DNA from: Candidatus Saccharimonadota bacterium
GTDB taxonomy: Bacteria; Patescibacteriota; Microgenomatia; UBA1406; GWC2-37-13
Reading direction: 5' to 3'
DNA length: 32,000 nucleotides
Assembly (NCBI GenBank): GCA_016700135.1
Contig: CP065004.1
Location: 330,001 to 362,000 of the forward strand
The notes beneath the pieces are model-generated. The model saw nothing but the letters and a program-made list of their open reading frames with translations, did no database searches and was not told the origin of the DNA. The translations under genes and the position numbers were made by a program. Below, piece by piece: positions 4,482 to 27,183 of this stretch (the first letter of the stretch is position 1; each line of letters starts with the position of its first letter).

Positions 4482-5363
4482 TTATTCATTTCCTTTATAC
4501 GCTTTTTCCAGTTCAGAGATATCAAACTTTTTCATCTTCATAAATGCTTTTGTTACCCGTTCCATCTGTTCTTTACTTCCCTTCCCCATCATCTCATCCA
4601 TGGCGGTCGGGACAATTTGCCAGGATACACCGAATTTGTCTTTGAGCCATCCGCACTGCTCTGCTTCCGGGACTGCTGAAAGCTTTTCCCAGTAATAATC
4701 AATTTCCTGCTGATCACGGCAGTTTACGATAAATGAAATCGCTTCATTAAAGGAAAATTTGTGATCATAGGCACTGTCTGAGATCATAAATACCTGTCCG
4801 TCCAGCGTAAATTCTGCGTGGTCAACCATCTTTTGACCCTCATCTTTTTCATTTCGATATACATGATCAATCGAGGAATTGTCAAAAATCTTCGTATAAA
4901 ACTCCATTGCTTCTTCGGCTTTCCCGCAGACTTTTCCCACAAACATCAAAAACGGAGAAATTTTCTGCTTAACTGAGCTGTAATCATTGGGCACATTAAG
5001 CTGCCAAGATAAACCATATTTGTCCTGTACCCAAGCGAATTTTTTGCTGAATTCGTACGTATCAAGCGGCATAAGCTCCGTGCCGCCTTCCATAAGAGCT
5101 TTGTGTAGTTTTTTGATCTCTTCTTCCGTCTCACACTGTACAGAAATTGAGATTGACGGATTAAATTTAAAAATCGGGCCGGCGCTAATTGACATAAACG
5201 GCTCTCCCGAAAGAGTGAAAGAAACAATATCGCAGTCTCCTGACGGTGTATCGGTGATTCGGGATACGTGATCAATGCTTGATCCGGAAAATAAAGAAGT
5301 GTAGAACTCTGCTGCTTCTTTCGCCTGAGTATCAAACCAAAGATGTGTTCTTATTTTTTTCAT
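4482..5363 (-). CDS. tandem PhnB-like/3-demethylubiquinone-9 3-methyltransferase-like (VOC superfamily) two-domain protein
   Basis: The domain is duplicated. LWFDTQAKEAAEFYTSLF...DKYGLSWQL is repeated as LMFVGKVCGKAEEAMEFYTKIF...DKFGVSWQI. Confidence 0.7.
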   Translation of the reverse strand: MKKIRTHLWFDTQAKEAAEFYTSLFSGSSIDHVSRITDTPSGDCDIVSFTLSGEPFMSISAGPIFKFNPSISISVQCETEEEIKKLHKALMEGGTELMPLDTYEFSKKFAWVQDKYGLSWQLNVPNDYSSVKQKISPFLMFVGKVCGKAEEAMEFYTKIFDNSSIDHVYRNEKDEGQKMVDHAEFTLDGQVFMISDSAYDHKFSFNEAISFIVNCRDQQEIDYYWEKLSAVPEAEQCGWLKDKFGVSWQIVPTAMDEMMGKGSKEQMERVTKAFMKMKKFDISELEKAYKGNE

Positions 5364-10983: not shown

Positions 10984-11268
10984 TCATTTACGAAGGAATA
11001 ATCCTCTCTCTCTTAATCGCTCTTTTAATAACCGGAGTGCCCTCGGTCCGAATCCGTGAAGTTCCAGGAGTTGTTCCTCTGTATAGTTTGTAAGTTGTGA
11101 AAGCTGAGTAATCCCGATACTGTCTAACGCTCGGAATGCGGGTGCTCCGATTTTAGGAAATTCTTCACCGTATTTTTCAGACATTTCGTTTTGAGAACAG
11201 ATCGGACAGACAGGACATGAACTCGTTTTTTCGAATGTATGCCCGTTTTTGCAGGTCTGAATTGCCAT
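10984..11268 (-). CDS. zinc-ribbon plus helix-hairpin-helix small protein
   Basis: It has CKNGH...CPVCPIC at the N-terminus and the HhH-like LELHGFGPRALRLLKERL at the C-terminus. Confidence 0.55.
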   Translation of the reverse strand: MAIQTCKNGHTFEKTSSCPVCPICSQNEMSEKYGEEFPKIGAPAFRALDSIGITQLSQLTNYTEEQLLELHGFGPRALRLLKERLRERGLFLRK

Positions 11269-11351: not shown

Positions 11352-13031
11352 TTATTGTCCGTACCTTTTTTTGAGCGTATCACCCGGCTTTACCTCACTG
11401 TTTGCTCTAATACCGCCGCCGGATTCATCCCAGGTTTCTTTATTTGATTCCCAACTGCCACCCGTGTCCGTAACATAGGATCTATAATCTGCTTCGTTAT
11501 AAAATGCCATTTTGACACTCCCCATATTTCCGCTATCATATTTGACTAAATCATAATACACATAGACAATTCTGCCGTTTTCATCTGTTGTTTTGACATC
11601 AGGTTCTCCTAATTTTTCAGTCACTAGGGCAATATTTTTGAAATCACCGTCTTCGTCCATTTCGTTGTACTCACTTATGGGCATTGCATCACCACCTGAT
11701 TGTGAATCTCCTTCTTTTGAACCGGACTTTTTGTACAAAAAACCCCAGGGAGCAATTCCCCCCATATATTTTTCTCCGGGTTGTATTACTTCGTCGCCTA
11801 TACGCATTTCGGTTAATAAGAGGTCATTCTCTCCAACCTTAAATTCGAAATAACCCTTCGATTCATCCTCCCCGAATATTTTGATTCGATCACCTTCCTG
11901 TGTCCATTTTTTAAAGTTACCGCCGTTTACCGTACCGTCCTCATTCAAAACAAAATCAAACTCAATTCTTTGTTTTTCTTCATTTCCTCCTGATATACTC
12001 TCCACCGTCCCTTCCCATGCTGTATTCGCTAGACTTTTTTTCTCTGACTTTTTTTCGGATTCTTCAACGGATTTAGTGTTGACTTCACTTTCTTTCTTTC
12101 CTTTATTTTCATTAGACGAACTTACCAAAAACTCTTTCACCTCTTCTTCCGTCATCGGCTCATATTTTTTGTTAAGGCTTTGCAACCACGCCTCAACCTC
12201 AGCTTTTTCTATTTCGGCAACCGTCACTGTTCCCGGGTATTTGGCCTGGCGGATACGTTGAAACGGGGGGTGGTACTCAAAAGTAGTCAAATCAACACCG
12301 ACGACTTTTCCTTCCTGTGCGGTTTCCCTAAACTGTTCCAGTCCGACCATGACGCTATCGAACTTTCCGTATGCATTACCGAGATTACCTGGAACATTGG
12401 TTATCGTTATGACACTGGCGATAGGTTCCGTCACGGTTCTGACATCTTTCACGATAGAAGAGATTTTGTTTCTATCACCGAATGCTATTTGTGCTCCGTC
12501 CTCTGTAACTTCCAAAGCAAGATCCACACCCACAACAACTGTTCCTGCTTGAGCTATCGTACCGGCAGCAGCAAGCCCTGCCGTGCCACCGGTCAAGACT
12601 ACACCCCCCACAAAACCGACAACCTTGCAGCCGTCTTTGACCACGATCGCTTTATGTTCCAGATTTTCAAATGCGTCTCCCTCTTCAATAAAAACTTCCG
12701 CAGTTGTTTCATCTTGAGCTTGATTTAAAATGAGCTGAGCCCGTTTGGCATCTACTCCCAAGTGCTTGGCGAGCGTTGCAATACCTTTAAATTTCGGCGC
12801 TTTGTCATAGATATCCGTAACTTCTTTTGAAGTATACGCATAAACAGTACCGATCAGTCGCCGATTTACCGCCAGTTCGTCTGCCTTTTTGCCGGCTGTT
12901 GTTTCCATTTCATGTACTTGCTTTTCCAAATCACTCCAATCGTGTATCAAAGCAGTCATCTCGTCGTCCCAGGTCTGATAGTCGGGATAGTTTTCGGCAT
13001 TTATGAGGAGATTGTCTGTACGATTGCGCAA
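11352..13031 (-). CDS. large orphan protein, N-terminal membrane anchor cut off by the IS
   Basis: The 559-aa ORF has a TTG start in the track. The same frame stays open to 13163 and encodes a TM helix (LKILLFISLFIAIIIAGYFIFFY) with no start codon. It ends at a stop inside the IS inverted repeat. Confidence 0.6.
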   Translation of the reverse strand: MRNRTDNLLINAENYPDYQTWDDEMTALIHDWSDLEKQVHEMETTAGKKADELAVNRRLIGTVYAYTSKEVTDIYDKAPKFKGIATLAKHLGVDAKRAQLILNQAQDETTAEVFIEEGDAFENLEHKAIVVKDGCKVVGFVGGVVLTGGTAGLAAAGTIAQAGTVVVGVDLALEVTEDGAQIAFGDRNKISSIVKDVRTVTEPIASVITITNVPGNLGNAYGKFDSVMVGLEQFRETAQEGKVVGVDLTTFEYHPPFQRIRQAKYPGTVTVAEIEKAEVEAWLQSLNKKYEPMTEEEVKEFLVSSSNENKGKKESEVNTKSVEESEKKSEKKSLANTAWEGTVESISGGNEEKQRIEFDFVLNEDGTVNGGNFKKWTQEGDRIKIFGEDESKGYFEFKVGENDLLLTEMRIGDEVIQPGEKYMGGIAPWGFLYKKSGSKEGDSQSGGDAMPISEYNEMDEDGDFKNIALVTEKLGEPDVKTTDENGRIVYVYYDLVKYDSGNMGSVKMAFYNEADYRSYVTDTGGSWESNKETWDESGGGIRANSEVKPGDTLKKRYGQ

Positions 13032-13163: not shown

Positions 13164-13878
13164 GGCTCTAGACTAGCAGAGTAGTGCTAAACTAGAGGTA
13201 TGGTTTGTAACAATAGGCCGATATCAAAATACAAGAGAAAAAAGATACTATGGTGTTTTGCACACGATCTGAGTGCTACACAGACCTCTGGTATTTTGGG
13301 TCTCAACCGCAATACAGTCAACAAATATTACAATAATATTCGTCAACTCATATATCATCACCAAGTGCACCAGATGCAACGATATGTTGGTGGTGAGATA
13401 GAAATTGATGAATCATACTTTGGACCTCGAAGGATGAGAGGCAAGTCAAGTAAAAGAGGTCGTGGGACGTCATTTAAGCAGGTAGTATTTGGGATATATG
13501 AGCGTCAAGGACGTGTATTTACTCGTATCATTCCAAACTGTAAAAGAAGAACGCTACATGCTGTTATGAAGGGAAAGATTGACTTGAACAGTACTGTATA
13601 TTCAGATTCGTGGAGCGGATACAACGGACTTGTTGATGTCGGGTATGACAAACATTTGAGAATCAATCACAAGAAAAATGAGTTCTCAAATACAAAAGGG
13701 GTCCATATCAATGGCATAGAGTCATTCTGGTCCTTTTGTAAAAGACGTCTCGTTAAGTTCAATGGTGTAAAGAAAAACTTTCCATTACACTTGAAAGAGT
13801 GTGAATGGAGATGGAGCAAATCCCCATCGATCCTTTACAATGAACTATTACAAATTGTTAATGTGCTAGTCTAGAGCC
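13164..13878 (+). mobile_element. IS1595-family insertion sequence (IS1016-group size), 715 bp
   Basis: It has perfect 15-bp terminal inverted repeats: GGCTCTAGACTAGCA (13164-13178) and TGCTAGTCTAGAGCC (13864-13878). It holds a single transposase ORF whose stop lies in the right repeat. Confidence 0.85.
13200..13874 (+). CDS. IS1595-family (ISXO2-like DDE) transposase
   Basis: 224 aa, with an N-terminal HTH (LSATQTSGILGLNRNTVNKY). The DDE-region strings are GGEIEIDESYFG, VVFGIYERQG, VYSDSWSGY and HINGIESFW. Confidence 0.85.
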   Translation: MVCNNRPISKYKRKKILWCFAHDLSATQTSGILGLNRNTVNKYYNNIRQLIYHHQVHQMQRYVGGEIEIDESYFGPRRMRGKSSKRGRGTSFKQVVFGIYERQGRVFTRIIPNCKRRTLHAVMKGKIDLNSTVYSDSWSGYNGLVDVGYDKHLRINHKKNEFSNTKGVHINGIESFWSFCKRRLVKFNGVKKNFPLHLKECEWRWSKSPSILYNELLQIVNVLV

Positions 13879-14059: not shown

Positions 14060-14617
14060 TTACTCCTTACAGCAATCAATCGCTTTTTGCACCAACTGAC
14101 CCAGCTTCTCAAAGATGCCTGTCGAACCTTTAACTGAAGGCTTTGGATCTTCGCTGACAAAAGCAACCTCTTTTGAATCGGTATGCTTTATGTCCTTGGT
14201 CTGCACTAAGCCCAGATTTAATCCCCAGAACAAGCTATAAAGCTGGTAGGACTTCTGGAACATATCCTCAGCATCACCTTTGTCACCCTTGGTAAGCGCC
14301 TTTGTGCCAACCTCCATAAAACGCATCGAGGCAGCCAGTAAGTGTTTACTGATACACCAGACCTCTCCCTCATAGTCTTTGATAATCCGCTTCAAGGTGC
14401 TTTTTCGCATCTCTCGAATCTCGTTTAAAAGATCAAGATATTTAGGATCTTTGGTTTTGTTGTAGGAAAAGAAGAAATGCTCCTCCATTGAAATTAGGTT
14501 CATAATACCAATAGAAAGATCTTCGTCTGATGAAAGATCGAGTTTTTCTCCCCTCTCCATCTTTTTAACCTTGTCCATAAACTCGTTAATGTCAGGCTGA
14601 ATTTGTTTGTTTTTCAT
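14060..14617 (-). CDS. hypothetical protein with C-terminal CC pair (last gene of the ArsR operon)
   Basis: The ATG at 14615-14617 is preceded by AGGAGGTGA, directly after the upstream stop codon. The protein ends ...KAIDCCKE. Confidence 0.6.
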   Translation of the reverse strand: MKNKQIQPDINEFMDKVKKMERGEKLDLSSDEDLSIGIMNLISMEEHFFFSYNKTKDPKYLDLLNEIREMRKSTLKRIIKDYEGEVWCISKHLLAASMRFMEVGTKALTKGDKGDAEDMFQKSYQLYSLFWGLNLGLVQTKDIKHTDSKEVAFVSEDPKPSVKGSTGIFEKLGQLVQKAIDCCKE

Positions 14618-14630
14618 AGTTTCACCTCCT

Positions 14631-15140
14631 TTAACTGGTAATAAGATAAAAGACAAAACTGGCAAGCGACAAGAGAAACACTGGGATAATCACTTTTTGA
14701 TAGTAAACATACACCTTGCCACCATTAGTTGTTCTCAGCCACTTATCCAGCCAGACACCGCCAAGAAAAATAACTGAGCCAATCACTGTTCCCAGTAACA
14801 CCTTATCAACTCCCCATAAGGTGTTGCCAGGAAGACCAATCATCTTGCTCCAATACAAGGGCGGTATGACAAACAAAAAGAATAGCCCAACAGAAACTGC
14901 CTCTTTATATGGCACTTTCCACCCTTTCTTACCAATCCAATCAGCAAGCCATAAACCGCTGGATAGAATCAGCCCGCCAACCCAAATACCCGTCACACTA
15001 TCATCAATACCAATCCAGCGAGAAATACCAAGTCCCGCTCCTACCGCTACCGTGCAGACAGGACAGACCGCATGAGCCTGCGTAACTGTCATCAGGAAAG
15101 CTATGAGCATGGCAAACACACTTAAAAGCAGTTTCATCAT
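14631..15140 (-). CDS. polytopic membrane protein with signal peptide and CPVC motif
   Basis: MMKLLLSVFAMLIAFLMTVTQAHA is followed by VCPVCTVAVG and then about 4 TM segments. An AAGGAGG SD lies upstream. Confidence 0.65.
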   Translation of the reverse strand: MMKLLLSVFAMLIAFLMTVTQAHAVCPVCTVAVGAGLGISRWIGIDDSVTGIWVGGLILSSGLWLADWIGKKGWKVPYKEAVSVGLFFLFVIPPLYWSKMIGLPGNTLWGVDKVLLGTVIGSVIFLGGVWLDKWLRTTNGGKVYVYYQKVIIPVFLLSLASFVFYLITS

Positions 15141-15604
15141 TCAGCCTCCTTTCCAGACTCGGTTGCCTCATTACTGCCAGACAAACCAGCTTTATCGCTT
15201 AAATAGCCAACAATATCAGGCGTGCCAATAAGACACTTGCCTTCAGGAGTAAAAAGAAACGGCACACCGATTGAAGAGGTGTCCAGACCGCAGCTTTCTG
15301 CCGCTTGGGACAACTCCAGAGAATTGGCTCGGTTGTCATACACTTCTTTTTTAACAACTTCAATTTTCTCTTCAATCTTATTCTCCTGCATCCATTTCTC
15401 AACATCGGCGCAGTGCGGGCAGGTATTACCATAGAAGAAAATAGGCATTTGGATGCTGAGAGCGGGAGTCGCTGAAGAAGCAGCCCCTGAAGGCTGCTGT
15501 GTGGCTTGTGTGTCAGCTTTTCTGCCCTTACTACCTAAAACCACTGCAGTAAGCAGACCAACGATAACCAGGATGATAGCGATAGTAAAAATAGCTTGTT
15601 TCAT
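15137..15604 (-). CDS. membrane-anchored glutaredoxin/thioredoxin-like protein (CPHC)
   Basis: It has an N-terminal TM anchor, a linker, then IFFYGNTCPHCADVEKW, a Grx/Trx-fold active site. Confidence 0.7.
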   Translation of the reverse strand: MKQAIFTIAIILVIVGLLTAVVLGSKGRKADTQATQQPSGAASSATPALSIQMPIFFYGNTCPHCADVEKWMQENKIEEKIEVVKKEVYDNRANSLELSQAAESCGLDTSSIGVPFLFTPEGKCLIGTPDIVGYLSDKAGLSGSNEATESGKEAE

Positions 15605-15606
15605 AC

Positions 15607-16587
15607 TTATAAAATCCAGTTAAATAAATAACCCATGACCATAATGCCGATGATTGTAATTCCGAAAAATAAAGTCAATAGTTCCCATTTCATGACTTTT
15701 TTTAAAATCATCGCTTGAGGGATAGAAACAGTCACAATCGCCGTCATAAAAGCCAGCGCTGTTCCCAGAGGCACACCCTTAAGGACTAAAGCCTCCATTA
15801 CAGGAATAACACTAACCGAATTAGCATACAAAGGAGACCCAAAAAGTGTTGCTAAAGGAACTGTCCACCAAGTTTCGACTGCCAAGTATTGTTCCACCAG
15901 ATGGGCAGGGACGAAACCATGAATCAAAGCTCCGATACCAACCCCCAAGACCACATAAGGAAACACTTCTTTGGTAATTGCCATGCCGTCTTTCCAAAAA
16001 TAACCCAGGAGTTCTTTGGGGGGTAATGCCAATCCTCCATGTTCTTCCTCGACTTGTTTTCTGGATTTAAACTTCAATAGTTCTTGTTTGACATATTTTT
16101 CAACTCGCAACCGATGAACTAACATTCCTCCCAGAACTGCCACAGCAATACCAACCAGGTTATATAAAACAGTTACCTTCATACCAAACATTGCAGGAAA
16201 CAGATATAAAGAGGACTCATTAACCAGTGGAGAGCTGATCAGGAAGGCAAAAGTCACCCCCAAAGGGATTCCTGCACCCACAAAGCCAATAAAAAGCGGT
16301 ATAGAAGAGCAGGAGCAAAACGGAGTGATAACACCCAGTGCGGCAGCAAATAGATAATCCAACCCAAACCAGCGTCTTTTGGTAAGCATATCCCGCACTT
16401 TCTCCATCGGGAAATAGTAGCGGGTAATCGCCATGAAGTAGTTGATAACCACCAAAAGCAATCCGATTTTTAGAACATCATAAATGAAGAAATTGACAGC
16501 ACTGCCCAAATAAGACTGCCTGCCTAAATTGAGCCACCCGTAGGTGGCAAGATCAGCAAAAAGTTGTAAGGGTCTAAAAATATCCAT
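15607..16587 (-). CDS. ArsP-like permease (DUF318 family)
   Basis: 326 aa and polytopic. The ITPFCSCSSIP motif matches the vicinal Cys pair described for the ArsP organoarsenical efflux permease. It sits in the usual arsR / Trx-like / permease context. Confidence 0.8.
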   Translation of the reverse strand: MDIFRPLQLFADLATYGWLNLGRQSYLGSAVNFFIYDVLKIGLLLVVINYFMAITRYYFPMEKVRDMLTKRRWFGLDYLFAAALGVITPFCSCSSIPLFIGFVGAGIPLGVTFAFLISSPLVNESSLYLFPAMFGMKVTVLYNLVGIAVAVLGGMLVHRLRVEKYVKQELLKFKSRKQVEEEHGGLALPPKELLGYFWKDGMAITKEVFPYVVLGVGIGALIHGFVPAHLVEQYLAVETWWTVPLATLFGSPLYANSVSVIPVMEALVLKGVPLGTALAFMTAIVTVSIPQAMILKKVMKWELLTLFFGITIIGIMVMGYLFNWIL

Positions 16588-16590
16588 AAA

Positions 16591-16833
16591 TTACTTCTGC
16601 GCCTCCTTAAGAAGACTCTTAACTTTCTCTACATCGGGTAAGAAACCAACCATGACAGGCTTTCCGTCAACGGCAAGAACAGGGCTGGACATTACTCCCA
16701 TTTCAATGATCTTTGAGACATCGGTAATATACTCAACCTCCTCGTTAAGATTGAGCTCTTTGACCGCTTGCTGAGTTAGTTCATACAGCTTCTTGCAAGT
16801 AGGACAGCCTGAACCTAAGACTTGGATTTTCAT
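16591..16833 (-). CDS. thioredoxin-family redox-active disulfide protein 2 type (CPTC)
   Basis: 80 aa. MKIQVLGSGCPTCKKL...SPVLAVDGK is the classic small thioredoxin-like partner of DUF318 permeases. Confidence 0.8.
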   Translation of the reverse strand: MKIQVLGSGCPTCKKLYELTQQAVKELNLNEEVEYITDVSKIIEMGVMSSPVLAVDGKPVMVGFLPDVEKVKSLLKEAQK

Positions 16834-17153
16834 AAAGCCACCCCCTTTTCAGAAATCTTAAATAACAAATTGGTAATCTGCTTGCCTTTATCGGTAAGCG
16901 AGTAATACACCCGCAAACCCTGCTTGTTGTCCGTAACAACACCAGCATCCTTTAAATCCTTGAGGTGATGGGAAATCAGGCTCTGGGACATATCTACATG
17001 CTCCATCAGCTCACACACACAATGCTCCCCTCGGCGAAGAATGCACAAGAGCTTTAAACGGCTTTCCTCGGACACCAACTTAAGAAGTGAGGATAACGAC
17101 TCGACTTGTTTTGATTCCTTACTTGATGGTGAGCAACAACTGTATGAACCCAT
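16830..17153 (-). CDS. arsR: ArsR/SmtB-family metalloregulator (As(III)-type CVC site)
   Basis: It has the HCVCELMEHV...SQSLISHHLKDLKDAGVV winged HTH. The track's TTG start (17189) is part of a -35 hexamer. I prefer ATG 17151-17153 (or 17157-17159), and the transcript may be leaderless. Confidence 0.85.
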   Translation of the reverse strand: MGSYSCCSPSSKESKQVESLSSLLKLVSEESRLKLLCILRRGEHCVCELMEHVDMSQSLISHHLKDLKDAGVVTDNKQGLRVYYSLTDKGKQITNLLFKISEKGVAL

Positions 17154-17155
17154 GT

Positions 17156-17189
17156 TCATATTATATGAAAGCAGTTGATGAAAAGTCAA
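17156..17189 (-). promoter_or_regulatory. arsR promoter TTGACT-N18-TATAAT with operator palindrome over the -10
   Basis: On the minus strand the -35 is at 17184-17189 and the -10 at 17160-17165. The inverted repeat TCATAT-N-ATATGA (17156-17168) encloses the -10. Confidence 0.55.
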
Positions 17190-17252: not shown

Positions 17253-17438
17253 ATGCCGAAGAAAAACACGACATTGCCAAAGTTGCTAACAATAAAACAG
17301 GCTTCAGAGATCCTGAATGTGCATGTGGAGACTTTAAGGCGTTGGGACAAGCGCGGGAAACTCAAAGCCATAAGGGTAAACGAGCGAGGAGACAGGCGCT
17401 ATCGACCAGAAGACATAGAAAAATTAATGAAAATATAA
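17253..17438 (+). CDS. excisionase/MerR-type HTH DNA-binding protein (61 aa)
   Basis: LLTIKQASEILNVHVETLRRWDKRGKL is the HTH_17/excisionase signature. Its stop lies 1 nt before the res start. Confidence 0.7.
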   Translation: MPKKNTTLPKLLTIKQASEILNVHVETLRRWDKRGKLKAIRVNERGDRRYRPEDIEKLMKI

Positions 17439-17439
17439 T

Positions 17440-20022
17440 ATGAGCAACTTATATCAACAATTAAAATCAGATGTAATTAACTGGAGACAGCAGGGTTATC
17501 CCTCCTCCTACCCTGTTATTGCAACCATCCTAAACTTCAATAAAAATAATTTTCTAAGACAAGCACAATTTGAGGCACTCGAAACTTACTGGTATTTGCG
17601 ACTGGTTAAAAACACCCCCAATATCTTCGAGCTTTATAAAGAATACTTCCAAGGCAAGGATCTCCTGAAAGCTCTTGGAATTTCTCTGTCAGAGGAGGAT
17701 CTGACCGATTTGTTGCTAGCTGGAGGCGGAATAGATGCAATCTTCGAAAAGGTAAAAACTGATAATGTCTTCGTTAAGAAGTATAAGCTTGAAGCTTTAA
17801 GAGAAACCCTCACCCTTCCATACCCAAGCTACATCTTGGCTTTGGCAATGGGAGCAGGAAAAACAATCCTTATTGCCTCCATCATTGCCACTGAGTTTGC
17901 AATGGCTCTAGAGTATCAAGAGAAAGACGGTATTTTTGTCAGAAACGCTCTGGTATTTGCGCCAGGCAAGACCATCCTTGGAGCATTGAAGGAAATTGCC
18001 GATACTCCATACGACAAGATCCTGCCTGCACGCTTCTACAAATCATTTGTAACCAATGTGAAGTTTACCTATACCAGGGATGGCGAAAAGGACATTCCCG
18101 TCATTCGAGGCAGTTCCTTTAATGTTATCGTCACCAACACCGAGAAAATCAGACTACAAAAAAACAGTATTCCCAAGTCATTTCTCGGCACACAACTGAG
18201 CCTAGGATTAGAAGAAGCCAAAGAGCTGGTTGCCAATCTGCGCTTACAATCAATCACCTCCTTGCCTCACTTAGCCGTCTTTTCAGACGAAGCGCATCAC
18301 ACCTACGGACAAGCATTAGCAGAGGATCTCAAGCGGGTGCGCCAGACCATTAACTACATCAGTGAAAAAACCAATCTTCTGGCAGTTGTTAACACCACAG
18401 GCACGCCTTACTTCCAAAGACAGCTCCTGCGAGATGTTATTTACTGGTATGGACTCTCCCAGGGCATTGAGGATGGCATTCTCAAGGAAGTCCGAGGCAA
18501 CATTGTTGCTTACAAAGAGGTTTCAGAGGAAGACTTTGTTATCGATATCGTCAAAGACTTCTTTCAGGAATACAAAGATGTTCGAGTCAATAACGGCGAA
18601 TACGCAAAACTGGCAATCTACTTCCCTCAGGTTGATGACCTAGACCAGGCTAAACCAATCGTTGAGCAAACGCTCATCTCTCTGAAACTAGATCCATCAG
18701 TTGTCTTACCAGTCCACAATAAATCACCAGAAGACATCAAAGACCTCTTTGACAACCGCATCAACGACCCGCACCTGCCTTACAGGGTGTTCTTGCTAGT
18801 CAACAAAGGCACTGAAGGGTGGAACTGTTTGTCCTTATTTGCCACCGCACTTGCAAGGAAACTCTCTTCCAGCAATAACTTTGTGCTTCAGGCAGCCAGC
18901 AGGTGCTTGAGGCAGGTCAATGGCAATACCAAGAAAGCCAAGATTTATCTCTCCAAAGCCAATGTCTCAGTGCTCGACCGCCAGCTTCAGGAAACCTTTG
19001 GTGAGGGCTTGGATGACCTCAATCGAGCCAAGACCGATACTTACCCAGTTAAGATTACTCTCAAAAAACTAGAAATCGAACCAGTTATCATCAAGAAGCT
19101 TATCCAAAAGATCGTCCCAGAAAACGATGCATCTACCACCTTGAAGGTGGAGAAGCCCAAATCTGACGCCGTAGAGGGGCTTGAGAAGACTGTTTACACC
19201 ATGTCCAAAACCCAGAGGAAAGGCGTCCTGGTTGAGGTTGATAGCGAAAAATCAAAGCCCAGAGATGTAAAGGTTGATTTATACCAGGCAGCAGTCCTGC
19301 TTGCCCATACTTATCGCCTTGACTCTCTAGAGATTTATAAGCTCCTTGCACCTCTTTACCCAGATGGAGAGATGTCTGCTGTTGACCTAGAGCTTGTCCG
19401 TTTACAACTAGAAAAGCAAGTTATCAAATACAAAGTCACTACGGAGACAATCGAAGAAGCCCTGGCACTTATCAAGACCAAAGGCTTTGAGGAAGAAGTC
19501 GAAGACGGCAAGACCTCCTATGTTACCCACATTAGGGTCAATAAGGACAATCTAGAAAAGTATGTCTTGGATACCGACACTTATAAAAAGAAGGCGGGTC
19601 AAATGCCTTTGTTTGGTTTCCACTATGACCCTTACAACTTCGATTCAGAAGACGAACGAGCTTTCTTTGAACAAATATTGGACAAACTCGGCGAAGATCC
19701 AGATAATGTTGAGGATATTTACTTTACAGGGGCACTCACGGATAGGGAGAAAACAGACTTTGCGTTTGAATATAAAGACAATAAAGGCGACTGGCATTCA
19801 TACACACCTGATTTCTTGATCAGAAAGAAAGACGGCAAGTCGCTTATAGTCGAAGTCAAGGGTAAGCCATACAGAAACGAGGCAGCAGAAAAGGAAATGA
19901 AACAACTAGAGGCGATAAATCCTGATAAAATTAAATATGAACTCCTGCTCTTAGAGGAAGGTGAATCGGTGTTTGGTAAAGTAACGCCAGTCTTTAATTG
20001 GATTTACCAAGCCCAAAAATAA
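17440..20022 (+). CDS. res: type III restriction enzyme Res subunit (SF2 helicase plus PD-(D/E)xK nuclease)
   Basis: It has Walker A LAMGAGKT, DEAH box FSDEAHH, and the C-terminal nuclease motif YTPDF...IVEVKG. Length is 860 aa. Confidence 0.85.
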   Translation: MSNLYQQLKSDVINWRQQGYPSSYPVIATILNFNKNNFLRQAQFEALETYWYLRLVKNTPNIFELYKEYFQGKDLLKALGISLSEEDLTDLLLAGGGIDAIFEKVKTDNVFVKKYKLEALRETLTLPYPSYILALAMGAGKTILIASIIATEFAMALEYQEKDGIFVRNALVFAPGKTILGALKEIADTPYDKILPARFYKSFVTNVKFTYTRDGEKDIPVIRGSSFNVIVTNTEKIRLQKNSIPKSFLGTQLSLGLEEAKELVANLRLQSITSLPHLAVFSDEAHHTYGQALAEDLKRVRQTINYISEKTNLLAVVNTTGTPYFQRQLLRDVIYWYGLSQGIEDGILKEVRGNIVAYKEVSEEDFVIDIVKDFFQEYKDVRVNNGEYAKLAIYFPQVDDLDQAKPIVEQTLISLKLDPSVVLPVHNKSPEDIKDLFDNRINDPHLPYRVFLLVNKGTEGWNCLSLFATALARKLSSSNNFVLQAASRCLRQVNGNTKKAKIYLSKANVSVLDRQLQETFGEGLDDLNRAKTDTYPVKITLKKLEIEPVIIKKLIQKIVPENDASTTLKVEKPKSDAVEGLEKTVYTMSKTQRKGVLVEVDSEKSKPRDVKVDLYQAAVLLAHTYRLDSLEIYKLLAPLYPDGEMSAVDLELVRLQLEKQVIKYKVTTETIEEALALIKTKGFEEEVEDGKTSYVTHIRVNKDNLEKYVLDTDTYKKKAGQMPLFGFHYDPYNFDSEDERAFFEQILDKLGEDPDNVEDIYFTGALTDREKTDFAFEYKDNKGDWHSYTPDFLIRKKDGKSLIVEVKGKPYRNEAAEKEMKQLEAINPDKIKYELLLLEEGESVFGKVTPVFNWIYQAQK

Positions 20023-20024
20023 CT

Positions 20025-21809
20025 ATGACAAATGACACAAACAAAAAAATAAAAATCGGCACACCTAACGGCAGACCTATGCTAACATGGGTGAATAAAA
20101 GGCCGTTAGAATCGGTTACAGGTTATCCGACACAACTCACCGAGAGCTTTGGAGACAAAGAAGCGCTCAAAGTGCCTGAATACGGCAAGCTAGAAAAGAA
20201 CTGGCACAACCTTCTCTTTCATGGCGATAACAAAGAAGTGCTCGCCTCTCTCTTGGAGTTAGGTTTCAGAGGCAAGGTTGATCTGATTTATATCGATCCT
20301 CCCTTTGCGAGCAATAAAGATTACATGCGCAAGGTTGAGCTAAGGGGTTTGAAAAGCCTAGGGAGACTAGAAGAGGATAGTGAATCGATTATCCAACAAA
20401 CAATGTATGAAGATATTTGGAAGAGAGATGAATACTTCCAATTTATTTATGAGAGGCTAATTCTCCTCAAAGAACTGCTCGCCGAAACAGGCAGTATTTA
20501 TGTCCACCTTGATTATCGCATGGTTCACTACATCAAAGTATTACTTGACGAAATCTTTGGAGAGGATGGCTTAAAGGCTGAAATTATCTGGAACTATGAA
20601 ACAGGCGGTGTAAACAAAAATGAATATGGGAAAAAACATGACAGCATACTCTTTTACACAAAGAGCGACAAGTTCACATTCAATGCGCAAGATATTCTTG
20701 AAAAAAGAGGAGAAGAAGTATTAAGACGACTTGCTACAGGTGTCGAATCAGCAACTAGGGCTAAGAACGAATTAAGGTTGCCAACTGATGTGTGGAGAAT
20801 CCCTGCAATAAATGCAATGGCCTTGGAAAGGATGGACTATGCCACACAAAAACCAGAGGCGCTTCTAGAAAAAATTATTAAAGCTTCTTCTGATCAAGGA
20901 GATCTGGTAATGGACTGTTTTATTGGCTCTGGCACAACTTGTGCAGTAGCTCAAAAGCTCGCTAGACGATGGATTGGCGTCGATGTCAACAAAGGCGCTA
21001 TCCAAGTAACTAGCAAAAGATTGCAGAAGATTATCAAGGAACAACAGAAAAAACTTATTGACGGACAAATTAGTAAAGCATTGGGGATCTATAAAGTTAA
21101 CAACTATGACCTGAGAATCCTCAAGACTGAAGCCAAAGAGCTAGCAATCCAACAATATGGAATCACCAGAACAAAAACAGAGACATTCTTTGATGGTTTA
21201 AGAGATAGTGGCGAACTGGTAAAAATCATAGACTTCAATCACCCGCTCACACTTCTTGACCTGCAGCTTATCAAGGACGAACTCGATAAACGACCAGAAG
21301 AAGACAGAGATATCGTTGTAATTTGTCTAGGAAGAGAGACAAAAGTCGATTCCTGGGTTGAGGAATGGAATAAAAAACAACCTCATAAAGACGCACGCAC
21401 CAGTAAGCGCATGAGGCAGTTCGTTGTCTTTGATCTTAAGGACAAGAACTTTGTCAGCTACGAACCCTCAAAAGCTGAAGTCGAGATTACTAGAGCGGGT
21501 AAAGATAAAGATAAAGTTAAAATCAAGGTTGTCTCTTTTATCTCCCCTTCCATAATCAAACGCTTGGAACTTGAACCAGGACTACTGCAAAAAAAGATTC
21601 CAGACTTCAGATCAATGATCGATGTCGTTTTGGTAGATACAAACTATGACAACGAAGTGTTCAAGATTGGCTTCTCTGATGTCCCAGAGAAACAGAGCGA
21701 CCTGGTCAAGGGAGAATACGAGCTTGAGATAACAGAAAAACCATCCAAAGTGGCAGTCAAAATCATTGACATGTTAGGAGAAGAAGTCTTGGTTACCAAA
21801 GAAGTGTAA
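20025..21809 (+). CDS. mod: type III Mod-like beta-class amino DNA methyltransferase
   Basis: Motif IV DLIYIDPPF precedes motif I CFIGSGTTCAVAQKL. The ATG at 20025 is 2 nt after the res stop; the track's TTG start is at 19998. Confidence 0.85.
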   Translation: MTNDTNKKIKIGTPNGRPMLTWVNKRPLESVTGYPTQLTESFGDKEALKVPEYGKLEKNWHNLLFHGDNKEVLASLLELGFRGKVDLIYIDPPFASNKDYMRKVELRGLKSLGRLEEDSESIIQQTMYEDIWKRDEYFQFIYERLILLKELLAETGSIYVHLDYRMVHYIKVLLDEIFGEDGLKAEIIWNYETGGVNKNEYGKKHDSILFYTKSDKFTFNAQDILEKRGEEVLRRLATGVESATRAKNELRLPTDVWRIPAINAMALERMDYATQKPEALLEKIIKASSDQGDLVMDCFIGSGTTCAVAQKLARRWIGVDVNKGAIQVTSKRLQKIIKEQQKKLIDGQISKALGIYKVNNYDLRILKTEAKELAIQQYGITRTKTETFFDGLRDSGELVKIIDFNHPLTLLDLQLIKDELDKRPEEDRDIVVICLGRETKVDSWVEEWNKKQPHKDARTSKRMRQFVVFDLKDKNFVSYEPSKAEVEITRAGKDKDKVKIKVVSFISPSIIKRLELEPGLLQKKIPDFRSMIDVVLVDTNYDNEVFKIGFSDVPEKQSDLVKGEYELEITEKPSKVAVKIIDMLGEEVLVTKEV

Positions 21810-21814
21810 CTAAA

Positions 21815-23683
21815 CTAAGCCTTCGCTTTTTCCTCACCAGAAAACTCTTTAATTAGAACATCGAATACTTTCTTGAAGTTTTCTTTGGTATCCTTTGAAA
21901 GTTTATCTTTTACTTCAGTAGCTCTAGATAAAAACTTTTTAGCTAATAAAACTTTGTCAGCTTTGGCTTTGGTGACATACTCTGAGTTGCTGGATTTATA
22001 AGTTTTTGAGCTGTCTTCTATAACATGATTTATAAAGTCCTCTTGGGTAAACAAATCTTCTATCCGCACGCCATCGCTATCCGAAACCGCTTTGATTTGT
22101 GCTTTTTCAACTAGCCACCTTTTTGTTAGGTTTTTCTCTCCATCCTTCTTGCCCTGGTCACTATCGTAAAGGTATAGCACCTTACAACCCCAACCATGTA
22201 GGATTGTTCCCACTTTTGGCATATTTCCTGAACCGCCACCGTAAATAAAGTTTAACTGCCCATCGTCTAAGATCGTCTTAAAAGCTGTCAGGTAATACCA
22301 ATCGGAAGGCCCCTCAACCACCACATTATTGAGCTTGTCAGGATTGGTAATTCCACTCGTTATTTCAAGTCCTATTGCAGTCAAGATAGGGGTTAAGGTT
22401 TCCTTGTCCGACACTTTGTGAATCTTTGATTCAACAGTCGTCCCATCCTCTCGTCCTCTAAAAACTAAACGCACCCGATCCAATTTGTCTGGATCGAGCA
22501 AGTAAGGAGAATGTGTGGAGAAAATGACTGGCATCTTGGCTGAACGATCCTCTAAAACGCTCAGAACATCTCTTTGTGCCTTAGCATGCAAATAAAGCCC
22601 AGGTTCGTCAACCAAAAGGTAGTTTTGTGTGCCAGACTCATAATGAAGCTTGAGCTGGATATAAAAAGAGAGAAACCATTGGAAGCCCTTACTTCGTTGC
22701 TGCATGCTGAACTTTTCACTTTTACCTTCTTCAACAAAGCCAAATACCAAATTATCTCCGTCAAGCATTGCTTCAAGTTCAACCTTATCTTGATTCCAAA
22801 AATCCAAGAAATCTCCCGTAATCGTGGTCGATTTACGACTCAGGTAGTTGATGTTTTGCTGTCGTGTTCGTTCTGCGTTAAGAAGGAGGTCTAGGTCTAT
22901 CTCAGAAATTTTAGCAAAATTCAGCACCGCCTTGTTTTTCTTGGCTTCAGCTAAGGGAATTTGAAACGGCAAAAGATTTTCAAAAGAATCAAAGTAGATA
23001 AAGTTTGGGGTCGATTTGACCAGCGCGTCTGTAAACTTTCTCTCTAGATCAAGAGTTGTCTGAAGTTGTTGAGCTAACTTCACGGCTTCGGCCATATACT
23101 GAGTGGCAGTATTCCTCTGTGCCTCATCCTCGATCTTTGGCAAAAGCGGGGTTAGTTGTTGTTGAAAATCAGTTAATTGCTTTACTAGTGGCGCTGCATC
23201 ACTAAAATCCAGCTCTGGTAAAGTCAAACCAACTGCCTCATTTTTTTTCAGAACTAAAGAAACAGAAGACGCCTTTCCTTTTATGGCTTTCCTTATTTCA
23301 TTAGCTTGCCCATCTAATTTTCCATTTAGCCACTTAGATGTGTCACCATCGAGGTCATAGGTTTTAGGAAATGTCTTAGTAATCGTAAGGTCACAAGATT
23401 TTTGCTCTTTACCTTCTAGTCCGATTGCCTGCAGTAAAGGGTTTATCTCATCTGCTGATAATGTAAAGGTAATTGCGACCTGTGATACGGCCTCCTCATT
23501 AAAAATAGGTTTAGCCTCTTTTCTAATTTCCTTGTCTTTATCAAAATCTTCAACCGCCTCTAATATCGCAGTTTTCCCCGACTCATTTTTCCCAGCAAGT
23601 ATAGTAACCTTTTCCTCAAGATAGATATCTCCAGAATTCTGGACTGAACGATAGTTATTGATCCGAACCTTTTTAATTCTCAT
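21815..23683 (-). CDS. OLD-family ABC-type ATPase fused to a Toprim nuclease domain
   Basis: It has Walker A GKNESGKT, Walker B LLVDEPGLYLH and H-loop STHSPY. The C-terminal Toprim has VVVEGPSDWYYL and LYDSDQG. It is convergent with mod, with 5 nt between the stops. Confidence 0.75.
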   Translation of the reverse strand: MRIKKVRINNYRSVQNSGDIYLEEKVTILAGKNESGKTAILEAVEDFDKDKEIRKEAKPIFNEEAVSQVAITFTLSADEINPLLQAIGLEGKEQKSCDLTITKTFPKTYDLDGDTSKWLNGKLDGQANEIRKAIKGKASSVSLVLKKNEAVGLTLPELDFSDAAPLVKQLTDFQQQLTPLLPKIEDEAQRNTATQYMAEAVKLAQQLQTTLDLERKFTDALVKSTPNFIYFDSFENLLPFQIPLAEAKKNKAVLNFAKISEIDLDLLLNAERTRQQNINYLSRKSTTITGDFLDFWNQDKVELEAMLDGDNLVFGFVEEGKSEKFSMQQRSKGFQWFLSFYIQLKLHYESGTQNYLLVDEPGLYLHAKAQRDVLSVLEDRSAKMPVIFSTHSPYLLDPDKLDRVRLVFRGREDGTTVESKIHKVSDKETLTPILTAIGLEITSGITNPDKLNNVVVEGPSDWYYLTAFKTILDDGQLNFIYGGGSGNMPKVGTILHGWGCKVLYLYDSDQGKKDGEKNLTKRWLVEKAQIKAVSDSDGVRIEDLFTQEDFINHVIEDSSKTYKSSNSEYVTKAKADKVLLAKKFLSRATEVKDKLSKDTKENFKKVFDVLIKEFSGEEKAKA

Positions 23684-27053: not shown

Positions 27054-27183
27054 AAAATCTAATCTTGCAAAAAATATCACTGAAACAAAGATTCTCGTAT
27101 ATAACACACTACATACGAGAAGAAGGGCATCTCTGTTTGATATTCCCTAAAAGTTTCTTTATGTTGTGTGTTGCAAAATTACT

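Follow-up and report, generated by a model that had tools for sequence, protein, structure and literature searches.

The g4-g5-g6 gene module of Patescibacteria, a candidate transmembrane cysteine relay

Within a 32,000-nt stretch of a Candidatus Saccharimonadota genome (contig CP065004.1, positions 330,001 to 362,000; hereafter the window), we analysed a minus-strand operon of six genes, g1 to g6, the first three of which encode an ArsR-family regulator, an ArsE-type mini-thioredoxin and an ArsP-type permease (Table 1). We found that the last three genes form a module of their own, which is far more widespread than the ars-type operon that carries it here: g4 encodes a membrane-tethered protein of glutaredoxin/thioredoxin (Grx/Trx) fold, g5 a small membrane protein with a single cysteine pair, and g6 a cytoplasmic protein predicted to be a four-helix bundle. 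Both g5 and g6 represent undescribed families, with no relative in Pfam, NCBIfam or the PDB. We tentatively propose, at slightly less than even confidence, that g4-g6 constitute a Cys-to-Cys thiol-disulfide electron relay across the membrane, protecting envelope thiols under metal stress. Functional statements throughout rest on sequence, predicted structure and gene context.

Distribution and gene context of the module

The 80 best g6 loci were scanned with the proteins of the window, and neighbourhoods were counted over 79 species-level genomes (loci are numbered L, homologous proteins P). In 74/79 genomes (94%) g6 has a g5-type gene directly upstream and on its own strand, and in 43/79 a g4-type gene precedes g5, with median gaps of 6 nt between g5 and g6 and -1 nt between g4 and g5. 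Apart from this, the genes flanking the module are unrelated and frequently lie on the other strand, and ArsR/ArsE/ArsP is attached in only ~7/79. These adjacency counts, together with the varying flanks, indicate that the conserved unit is g(4)-g5-g6 and that the ars-type head is one of several hosts; that g5 and g6 are nearly always neighbours, with their genes overlapping or almost so, speaks for a physical partnership. The preliminary description of this DNA had presented the three distal genes as additions to an ars set, to be checked for co-conservation with DUF318 (arsP) permeases, and had named its absence beforehand as the result that would speak against that link. Absence of co-conservation is largely what we found, and the original framing is inverted, g4-g6 being the autonomous element.

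Relatives of g6 fall into more than 8000 clusters of 90% identity (at 76-94% identity) and 527 clusters at 50% identity, and were found in at least 598 GTDB species genomes. Hosts are nearly all Patescibacteria (Microgenomates, Parcubacteria, Saccharibacteria-labelled genomes, WWE3, Berkelbacteria, Wirthbacteria), with a few archaeal metagenome-assembled genomes (MAGs) such as the Aenigmatarchaeota locus L036; many MAG taxon labels (e.g. 'uncultured Gammaproteobacteria') are automatic and unreliable.

Natural fusions join the components of the module to one another and to a thioredoxin. At L072, a g4-like domain is followed by two transmembrane (TM) helices and g5 in one polypeptide, and positive charge is confined to the N-terminus and the inter-TM loop, a pattern that places the Grx domain and the CPxC motif of g5 both on the outer side. 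P0282 and P0270 carry a g4-family CPHC Grx domain, complete with its second Cys pair, between the g6 bundle and its CC tail and have no TM helix; P0282 stands alone on its contig with no g5 nearby. In P0252, a cytoplasmic thioredoxin-like domain lies N-terminal to g6. Gene displacement is seen at L027, where the operon reads ArsR-ArsE-ArsP-ArsF-ArsG-g6 and ArsF-ArsG fill the slot of g4-g5; these are genuine members of their families (ArsF, NF040494 at 101 bits, cutoff 60; ArsG, NF040495 at 293 bits, cutoff 200, and Pfam DsbD_2 at 74 bits). At L049, g6 is accompanied by ArsE-ArsP only.

Genes for thiophilic-metal handling occur within ~6 genes of the module at 29/79 loci, and comprise CsoR/RicR-type regulators (11), P1B-type ATPases (12), DsbD_2-cupredoxin fusions (8), ArsR (6) and HMA proteins (~5). 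A single-copy gene would, by our estimate, stand in such a neighbourhood in ~1% of genomes, against which the observed figure is a strong enrichment. The module is found behind CsoR-CopZ-CopA-type (P-type ATPase) copper operons, or alone. Some arrangements have the appearance of one operon: L025 has the order CsoR-HMA-ATPase-HMA fusion-g4-g5-g6; in L033, L035, L042, L070 and L074 a divergent CsoR gene faces DsbD_2-cupredoxin-g4-g5-g6; and in L021 and the archaeal L036 the order is ArsR-g4-g5-g6. Its recruitment under different thiophilic-metal sensors speaks for a general function during stress that attacks thiols, and against a role specific to arsenicals. Of the earlier suggestion that the operon handles (organo)arsenicals or other thiophilic metals, the link to thiophilic metals therefore stands at these 29 loci, and an arsenical-specific role for g4-g6 appears unlikely from their gene context.

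Several loci carry further genes in or beside the module. In a Shapirobacteria operon (L018), a 105-aa 2x[4Fe-4S] ferredoxin gene (4966-5283) sits between ArsF and g4-g5-g6; its product ends …KSCCTK, with a C-terminal vicinal Cys pair, and has weak similarity (28 bits) to HgcB, the mercury-methylation ferredoxin. A widespread metagenomic variant (L009-L016; e.g. L009 7171-7395 and 8609-9829) has an ArsG gene shrunk to a 74-aa fragment and, after g6, a 406-aa protein with a secreted CPHC Trx-like domain and a multi-TM domain with FNPC; a small cupin follows ArsE in some copies. L005-L008 have a second ArsR-family gene and a DUF302-glutaredoxin fusion behind g6, and L002 has a TM-anchored rhodanese between ArsP and g4.

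A second, paralogous operon of the candidate phyla radiation (CPR) was seen at L033 (2077-4357, minus strand), L038 (7526-9748, plus strand) and L044 (5605-6635, minus strand), and also at L035, L040 and L060. Its products are a DUF1573 protein (TSCMCT), a paralogue of g5 (a signal peptide, then HCPLCVAGAG) and a ~400-aa TM-anchored rhodanese whose Cys-rich C-terminal domain reads RPCCGN…PDCNHG…GGCGA, and it often adjoins CsoR and g6. At L044 (4823-10232), g6 is surrounded by genes for DsbA-like (CPYC) and CcdA-like proteins and for two fusions, VKOR-thioredoxin and DsbD_2-cupredoxin; the VKOR-Trx gene indicates that some CPR encode VKOR despite lacking known quinone synthesis.

Predicted features of the three module proteins

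The g6 protein has no signal peptide, and AlphaFold2 (AF2) modelling with representatives of the 50% clusters gave a predicted local distance difference test (pLDDT) score of 80, with a core above 90 and a flexible tail. The bundle helices are predicted at 28-55, 59-78, 86-109 and 113-134, after which a disordered linker leads to one more helix (168-179) and a free tail. A first run on a shallow alignment (~80% identity) reached a pLDDT of 63 and was discarded. Neither the single protein nor a 51-member alignment found anything credible in Pfam, NCBIfam, PDB sequences or PDB folds, and a Foldseek search with the model returned only non-significant ferritin-like or rubrerythrin bundles (E >= 0.3, TM-score ~0.25-0.3). 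The label 'rhamnogalacturonyl hydrolase YesR' that JGI attaches to some homologues is spurious (Glyco_hydro_88 at E=0.12).

Across the 51 diverse members, E85, C88, K91, H92, L94, R99, E102, C182, C183 and E185 are invariant, and D27, S29, D33, N40, E45, E46, H47, K54, T55, R68, R71 and W87 nearly so; CxxKH and the C-terminal CC are present in all 80 genome copies. The preliminary description had the protein end in CC: the pair is there and invariant, and the protein ends CCKE, which puts it at positions -4/-3. The AF2 model puts Cys88 in the N-terminal first turn of helix 3, within the motif E85-x2-C88-x2-K91-H92. D33, N40, H47 and K54 follow a heptad spacing, and E85, C88, H92, R99 and E102 lie along one face of helix 3, a sequence pattern which suggests a polar stripe or pocket inside the bundle.

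Some homologues have unusual architectures. P0303 (552 aa) and P0357 (538 aa) are interrupted by a full-length intein with LAGLIDADG-like motifs, of which Cys88 is the +1 extein residue (…DW/CLPP…VVHN/CISKHLL, slashes marking the junctions); inteins favour functionally critical sites. In the tandem duplications P0242, P0243 and P0247 (~345 aa), the WC motif and the CC tail are kept in the second copy only, which suggests a functional dimer with one active site.

The g5 protein carries a Sec signal peptide that ends AHA in the window protein (AxA in 63/65 sequences). The mature protein begins x-C-P-[VIL]-C and continues with a Gly/Ala-rich helix (TVAVGAGLGLSRWLGIDD) and four TM helices. C26 and C29, the only cysteines in g5, are invariant in 66 sequences; apart from the CPxC motif only W53 and G121 are, and the TM helices have no conserved Cys, Met or His. 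Loops 69-80 and 132-149 are rich in Lys and Arg (means of 4.4 and 4.7) and are therefore assigned to the cytoplasm, and the CPxC helix is acidic and is therefore placed outside. Neither the single protein nor the 66-member family found a credible match in Pfam, NCBIfam or PDB sequence profiles: weak matches to DUF3007 (13/66) and RseC_MucC (7/66) look like glycine-zipper noise, and a TrkA match in the g5/g6 family searches came from a chimeric member. An identity as ArsG, DsbD_2 or CcdA was rejected, as neither g5 nor its 66 relatives match NF040495 or PF13386 and the protein has an adjacent CPxC only. The four TM helices and outer CxxC resemble DsbB, VKOR and MauE; this is a likeness and not a membership, as 0/66 members match these families, and the single CPxC is accompanied by neither a second loop Cys pair nor a CxC.

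The g4 protein consists of an N-terminal TM anchor, a low-complexity linker rich in Ser, Thr, Pro and Gln, and a minimal Grx/Trx fold. All 44 sequences share C62, C65, C105, C124 and P115 (at the cis-Pro position); 40/44 have CPHC as the active site, and C105/C124 form a second invariant Cys pair. Pfam Glutaredoxin is matched by 37/44 family members (best 1.5e-5) and Thioredoxin by 28/44, and the family profile matches the PDB glutaredoxin 7c10 at 6e-7; the window protein alone gives weak Grx/Trx matches below the Pfam cutoffs and falls into no Pfam or NCBIfam family. With the family matches and the invariant CxxC and P115, g4 is assigned to the thioredoxin-fold oxidoreductase superfamily, which is marked by a CxxC at a helix N-terminus and a cis-Pro loop. 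It is not an ArsF, having no match to NF040494, the model met by the genuine ArsF of L027; nor a DsbA, the weak DSBA (PF01323) matches being limited to 6/44 members and the ~95-aa soluble domain too short for the helical insertion. No family hidden Markov model match supports g4 and g5 as MerP and MerT, which have an HMA fold and a CC in TM1, respectively. By the positive-inside rule the g4 anchor is ambiguous (N>C in 12 sequences, N<C in 21, equal in 11); the charge pattern of the natural g4-g5 fusion at L072 puts this domain and the CPxC of g5 on one side, and the Grx domain is thus predicted to be extracytoplasmic.

A candidate cysteine relay and its rivals

Taken together, the fusions, the ArsF-ArsG displacement and the intein at Cys88 point to a Cys-to-Cys relay across the membrane. 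A relay through cytoplasm, membrane and exterior had been suggested in the preliminary description, and would also fit the predicted topology. From the gene order, the motifs and their conservation, the topology of g5, the fusions, the displacement and the metal-gene neighbourhoods that we observe, we infer each transfer step, its direction and its currency. The ArsR/SmtB repressor would, from what is known of its family, sense a thiophilic metal(loid) at its N-terminal CC and CVC and derepress the six genes, and the ArsE-type mini-thioredoxin and ArsP_1 permease would provide cytoplasmic handling and efflux of a putative metal(loid) substrate. Cys88 of g6, at a helix N-terminus and in the environment of Glu85 and His92, would be reactive, with the vicinal C-terminal Cys-Cys acting as a 'swinging arm'. 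It would exchange with the CPxC of g5, carried on a re-entrant N-terminal helix of the four-TM bundle, and g5 in turn with the CPHC of membrane-tethered g4 on the outer face. The most likely direction would run from the cytoplasm (thioredoxin/ArsE) through g6 and g5 to g4, with reducing equivalents as the currency, and the outcome would be envelope protein thiols and disulfides kept or restored under attack by Cu(I), As(III), Cd(II) or similar.

Reducing equivalents are suggested by the oxidoreductase fold of g4 with its cis-Pro, by the Trx-g6 fusion and by DsbD_2/ArsG replacing g5, and have a direct precedent in Scs, a copper-induced thiol-oxidoreductase relay (PMC10907172, PMC3322552). Since cop- and ars-type hosts already have chaperone or efflux genes, the module most likely adds a different function, for example redox repair. 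The direction of flow is less certain. The fusions and the displacement would favour an outward, reductive flow; an oxidative one would find support in the near-invariant CPHC and the structural disulfide of g4, in the DsbB-like architecture of g5 and in the presence of ArsF-ArsG beside the module.

A number of findings weigh against this proposal. At 50/79 loci there is no metal gene near the module, with which a housekeeping role is equally compatible. The one Cys pair of g5 lies on the outer face, and the reach of a cytoplasmic tail to it is conjectural. The ~20 invariant polar residues in the g6 bundle exceed the needs of a simple thiol carrier and, unexplained by such models, may mark a cofactor, metal or catalytic site; P0274 and P0277 have a TM helix N-terminal to the g6 domain, which makes its compartment uncertain in some lineages. 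CPHC, with a near-invariant His (40/44), is a DsbA/PDI-type oxidising motif, at odds with a reductive direction. L018 and L028 have ArsF-ArsG in addition to g4-g5, so the two pairs are apparently not redundant, and L005-L008 (e.g. L005 5714-9616) have the order ArsR-ArsE-ArsP-g4-g6, with a 387-aa ArsP (EVCSCT) and no g5.

The main rival, possible though in our view unlikely, is that the same cysteines pass on metal(loid)-thiolates and not electrons, in an export or sequestration relay. The g6 protein would then be a metallochaperone, with an S3 or S2N site built from Cys88/His92 and the CC tail, and would hand As(III) or methylarsenite (MAs(III)), Cu(I), Hg(II) or Cd(II) to the CPxC of g5 (also to the CSC of ArsP, or to ArsG) and thence to external g4; ArsD-ArsA, or in reverse the MerP-MerT-MerA tail, would be the analogue. 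In MerA and HgcB, Hg is bound by CC tails at the C-terminus, metal ligands are typically spaced as C-x3-H along one helix face, the ArsR of the window has an N-terminal CC of its own, and metal sensors and pumps are strongly enriched beside the module. It also speaks for a hand-off that g6 pairs with different Cys-bearing permeases (ArsE-ArsP only in L049, ArsF-ArsG in L027), that ArsG-family DsbD_2 proteins are curated as arsenical efflux permeases, and that vicinal Cys pairs form the MAs(III)/organoarsenical sites of ArsI and of MAs(III)-selective ArsR (PMC6514093). A metal path is hard to draw, however, through TM helices of g5 without conserved Cys, Met or His to line it, and g4 has the Grx/Trx fold with the cis-Pro hallmark of oxidoreductases, not the HMA fold. 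A second export route would be redundant in hosts that already encode CopZ/CopA or ArsP, the Trx-g6 fusion (P0252) is more easily explained by redox chemistry, and most loci have no metal gene at hand.

An oxidative, quinone-independent pathway of disulfide formation strikes us as decidedly unlikely. Here g4 would be a DsbA-like oxidant of exported proteins and g5 an analogue of DsbB, VKOR or MauE that re-oxidises it; electrons would flow inward to the Cys88/His92/Glu85 centre of g6, possibly with a cofactor or metal, and the CC arm would give them to a cytoplasmic acceptor. DsbA and MdbA have the motif CPHC, present in 40/44 g4 sequences, and PDI has it as CGHC; the second Cys pair of g4, also invariant, implies disulfide formation in its compartment; the layout of g5 mirrors DsbB, VKOR and MauE; and the many invariant polar residues of the g6 core would fit a cofactor site. 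ArsF-ArsG and g4-g5 occur together in L018 and L028, as expected of complementary reductive and oxidative arms, and ~20% of bacterial species have none of the known disulfide-forming enzymes DsbB, VKOR and MauE (MauE preprint), an acknowledged gap in the described pathways. No cytoplasmic oxidant or cofactor emerged, the Foldseek matches being non-significant; both the Trx-g6 fusion and the DsbD_2 displacement point to reductive flow, L044 has VKOR-Trx and DsbA-like genes of its own beside g6, and most CPR are anaerobes. We consider it very unlikely that there is no mechanistic link at all, g4-g5-g6 having come to be co-transcribed with ArsR-ArsE-ArsP only through juxtaposition driven by mobile elements. 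In that case g6 would have an unrelated role, in regulation, in assembly or as an enzyme that depends on thiols (such as a Trx/Grx-recycled peroxidase or reductase), with g5 as its membrane anchor, and E-x2-C-x2-K-H with a resolving C-terminal Cys pair may recall AhpD, MsrA and Prx. The operon lies in a mobile/defence island, ars-linked operons are mosaic, and the stand-alone g6-Grx protein P0282 has no g5 near it. Mere juxtaposition would leave unexplained the repeated independent recruitment behind ArsR and CsoR in two domains of life (Aenigmatarchaeota L036), the 94% adjacency of overlapping or near-overlapping g5 and g6, and the conserved Cys pairs in all three proteins.

As a transmembrane cysteine relay, the module is proposed to be a non-homologous analogue of DsbD/CcdA-ResA, ScsB-ScsC/D and ArsE-ArsG-ArsF, assembled from different parts; literature searches found no description of a g4-g5-g6 module. 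The closest known set is ArsE/ArsF/ArsG with ArsR and ArsP, of which g1-g3 are true members (ArsR/SmtB, MTH895/ArsE, ArsP_1) and with which the operon shares its layout: a mini-Trx in the cytoplasm, a membrane protein that bears Cys, and outside a Trx-fold protein held by a TM anchor. It differs in that g4 fails the ArsF model, g5 fails ArsG/DsbD_2, the described ArsEFG have no counterpart of g6, and g4-g6 mostly occur without any ars gene; the curated function of ArsEF, nitro-reduction of aromatic arsenicals, has no obvious relevance to the cop-linked copies. ArsEFG of Shewanella putrefaciens is reportedly the subject of work by Chen, Zhang and Rosen in 2019. [quoted passage not shown] With DsbD, CcdA-ResA/TlpA and ScsB-ScsC/ScsD the module would share the path proposed here, in which a thiol protein of the cytoplasm passes electrons by way of a Cys-bearing membrane protein to a tethered or periplasmic Trx-fold protein, as well as induction by, or genetic linkage to, stress from copper or thiophilic metals. 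They are related to g4-g6 neither in sequence nor in fold, however: the DsbD-family core has two cysteines on separate TM helices of a duplicated 3+3 bundle, whereas g5 has a single N-terminal CPxC and four TM helices, and the proposed cytoplasmic donor is the novel four-helix g6 and not thioredoxin itself.

Like the DsbA-DsbB, VKOR and MauE systems, the module pairs the DsbA motif CPHC with a small four-TM protein bearing one outer CxxC. Yet g4 has a ~95-residue Grx-like fold without the helical insertion domain of DsbA, g5 has neither the second loop Cys pair nor any similarity to DsbB, VKOR or MauE and no evident quinone site, and these systems offer no precedent for an obligatory cytoplasmic partner like g6. 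MerP-MerT-MerA, HgcB and ArsD/ArsI/MAs(III)-ArsR likewise have Cys pairs on the outside, within the membrane and in the cytoplasm, together with a CC on a flexible C-terminal tail and operons under the control of a thiophilic-metal sensor; they differ in having no homology to g4-g6, in that g4 has a Trx and not an HMA fold and the TM helices of g5 no metal ligands, and in that the operon contains no reductase, lyase or methylase partner. A Cys pair on a mobile tail shuttles between a buried site and a partner in high-Mr thioredoxin reductase (C-terminal Cys-Cys/Cys-Sec arm) and in Erv2 (CGC), and Erv, like g6, is a bundle of helices whose active Cys stands at the N-terminus of one of them. In contrast to these enzymes, g6 lacks a flavin-binding motif and a CxxC within the bundle, and no structural similarity was detectable.

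The maintenance of surface cysteines in CPR and DPANN, a large share of microbial diversity, matters for pili, adhesins and host contact. Should the module be a transmembrane Cys relay, it would give a testable answer on envelope thiol management in these organisms, as well as a new ~145-residue membrane conduit for electrons or metal and, in the cytoplasm, a new redox or metal protein equipped with a Cys-Cys arm. That g5 and g6 stand for an unrecognised, quinone-independent way of making or transmitting disulfides in CPR/DPANN without a respiratory chain seems improbable; if true, it would be a third solution beside DsbB/VKOR/MauE and DsbD/CcdA, in which g5 services a DsbA-like g4 and the electron partner is g6, a four-helix enzyme working through a catalytic Cys/His/Glu centre and its Cys-Cys swinging arm. 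An ars-type annotation of such operons covers only half of their encoded content.

Operon architecture, proximal genes and surroundings

The six open reading frames (14060-17189) are stacked almost without intergenic space, with 4-nt ATGA overlaps at g1/g2 and g4/g5 and gaps of 3 nt (g2-g3), 2 nt (g3-g4) and 13 nt (g5-g6), the last of which holds a putative ribosome-binding site, AGGAGGTG, ahead of the g6 ATG. As the preliminary description had stated, each product has a close Cys pair; its open reading frames, coordinates and quoted motifs were borne out (ArsR SCC and CVC; g2 CPTC; g3 TPFCSCS; g4 CPHC; g5 AHA/VCPVC; g6 C-terminal DCCKE), save for the arsR start treated below, and the pairs of g4, g5 and g6 are conserved among homologues. 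C-x(0-2)-C occurs in 6/34 other predicted genes of the window, so that pairs in six consecutive genes (~3e-5 by chance) are beyond coincidence; Cys density is 1.7% in the operon and 0.84% elsewhere in the window.

Table 1. Features of the operon and its immediate flanks, in window coordinates
Feature	Coordinates	Strand or orientation	Evidence
g1, ArsR/SmtB-family metalloregulator, 109 aa	16830..17159	-	Pfam HTH_5 1.2e-19; NF033788 90.3 bits (cutoff 55)
g2, cytoplasmic mini-thioredoxin with CPTC, 80 aa	16591..16833	-	Pfam Thioredoxin_3 2.3e-23; TIGR00412
g3, ArsP_1 (DUF318) permease, 326 aa, TPFCSCS	15607..16587	-	PF03773 9.1e-58, 196 bits (cutoff 32.3)
g4, TM-anchored Grx/Trx-fold protein, CPHC	15137..15604	-	family profile matches, invariant residues
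g5, new membrane-protein family	14631..15140	-	Sec signal peptide, V-CPVC, four TM helices; no named relatives
g6, new cytoplasmic family, 185 aa	14060..14617	-	four-helix bundle (AF2), invariant CxxKH and C-terminal DCCxE
sigma-70-type promoter TTGACT-18-TATAAT	17160..17189	-	11/12 matches, best in region; abuts arsR ATG
IS1595-family transposase	13200-13874	convergent with g6	
MerR-type helix-turn-helix protein and type III restriction (Res) / methylase (Mod)	17253-21809	divergent from arsR	

The preliminary description gave the operon as reaching 17189. The TTG at this position is the -35 hexamer of the arsR promoter, whose TATAAT (17165-17160) directly abuts the ATG at 17159; ArsR therefore starts at ATG 17159 or 17153 (109 or 107 aa), and its mRNA is probably leaderless or nearly so. 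The TTG 'start' had been called mechanically, on the gene's own promoter. One strong promoter, no room for internal promoters and no terminator-like site within the six-gene unit above shuffled expectation support a single ArsR-headed transcription unit, again in agreement with the earlier account. A search for an ArsR operator gave one match only, a 9-nt inverted repeat with a 29-nt spacer (17134-17142 / 17172-17180), which is not convincing. The repeat straddles the arsR start and could be an operator.

By their profile matches, g1-g3 are ordinary members of known families, in line with the known association that had been recognised in them. g1 scores 70.3 bits against PF01022 (winged-helix HTH_5; cutoff 22), placing it in ArsR/SmtB, and stays below the cutoffs of the equivalog models TsoR, BigR and CmtR. 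It has an N-terminal SCC arm and HCVCE in helix alpha3, and N-terminal CC with CVC recurs in homologous operons. From knowledge of the family we take the N-terminal Cys-Cys and HCVCE to be a CadC-like alpha3N thiolate site; the inducer is therefore probably a thiophilic metal(loid). g2 belongs to the MTH895/ArsE family ('redox-active disulfide protein 2'; TIGR00412 at 88.7 bits, cutoff 62; PF13192 at 82.4 bits, cutoff 24.8). g3 falls in none of the functionally defined ArsP_1 subfamilies, scoring 107.9 bits for SaoE against a cutoff of 325 and 90.7 for SO_0444 (Cu/Zn efflux) against 300.

The operon is embedded in a mobile/defence island (13200-13874, 17253-23683 and 27166-28791) that also includes a large serine recombinase and an ATPase of AAA_15/AbiEii-like type. 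The window is 100% identical to a contig of a CPR/Patescibacteria MAG, Candidatus Microgenomatus sp. BE2012_6_40_25 (L017). On another contig (L001), an almost identical operon is followed by other genes, for a 487-aa unknown protein and a NUDIX protein, and ars-linked operons are mosaics with interchangeable middle genes; the window operon is composite and probably mobile. A search for phage- or plasmid-borne spread of the module gave one weak viral-contig match and no plasmid match. Just downstream of the transposase lie two further minus-strand genes: one (11352-13031) encodes a 559-aa acidic protein with no Pfam match, the other (10984-11268) a 94-aa protein that has a CPVC of its own and a helix-hairpin-helix like that of the RNA polymerase alpha C-terminal domain.

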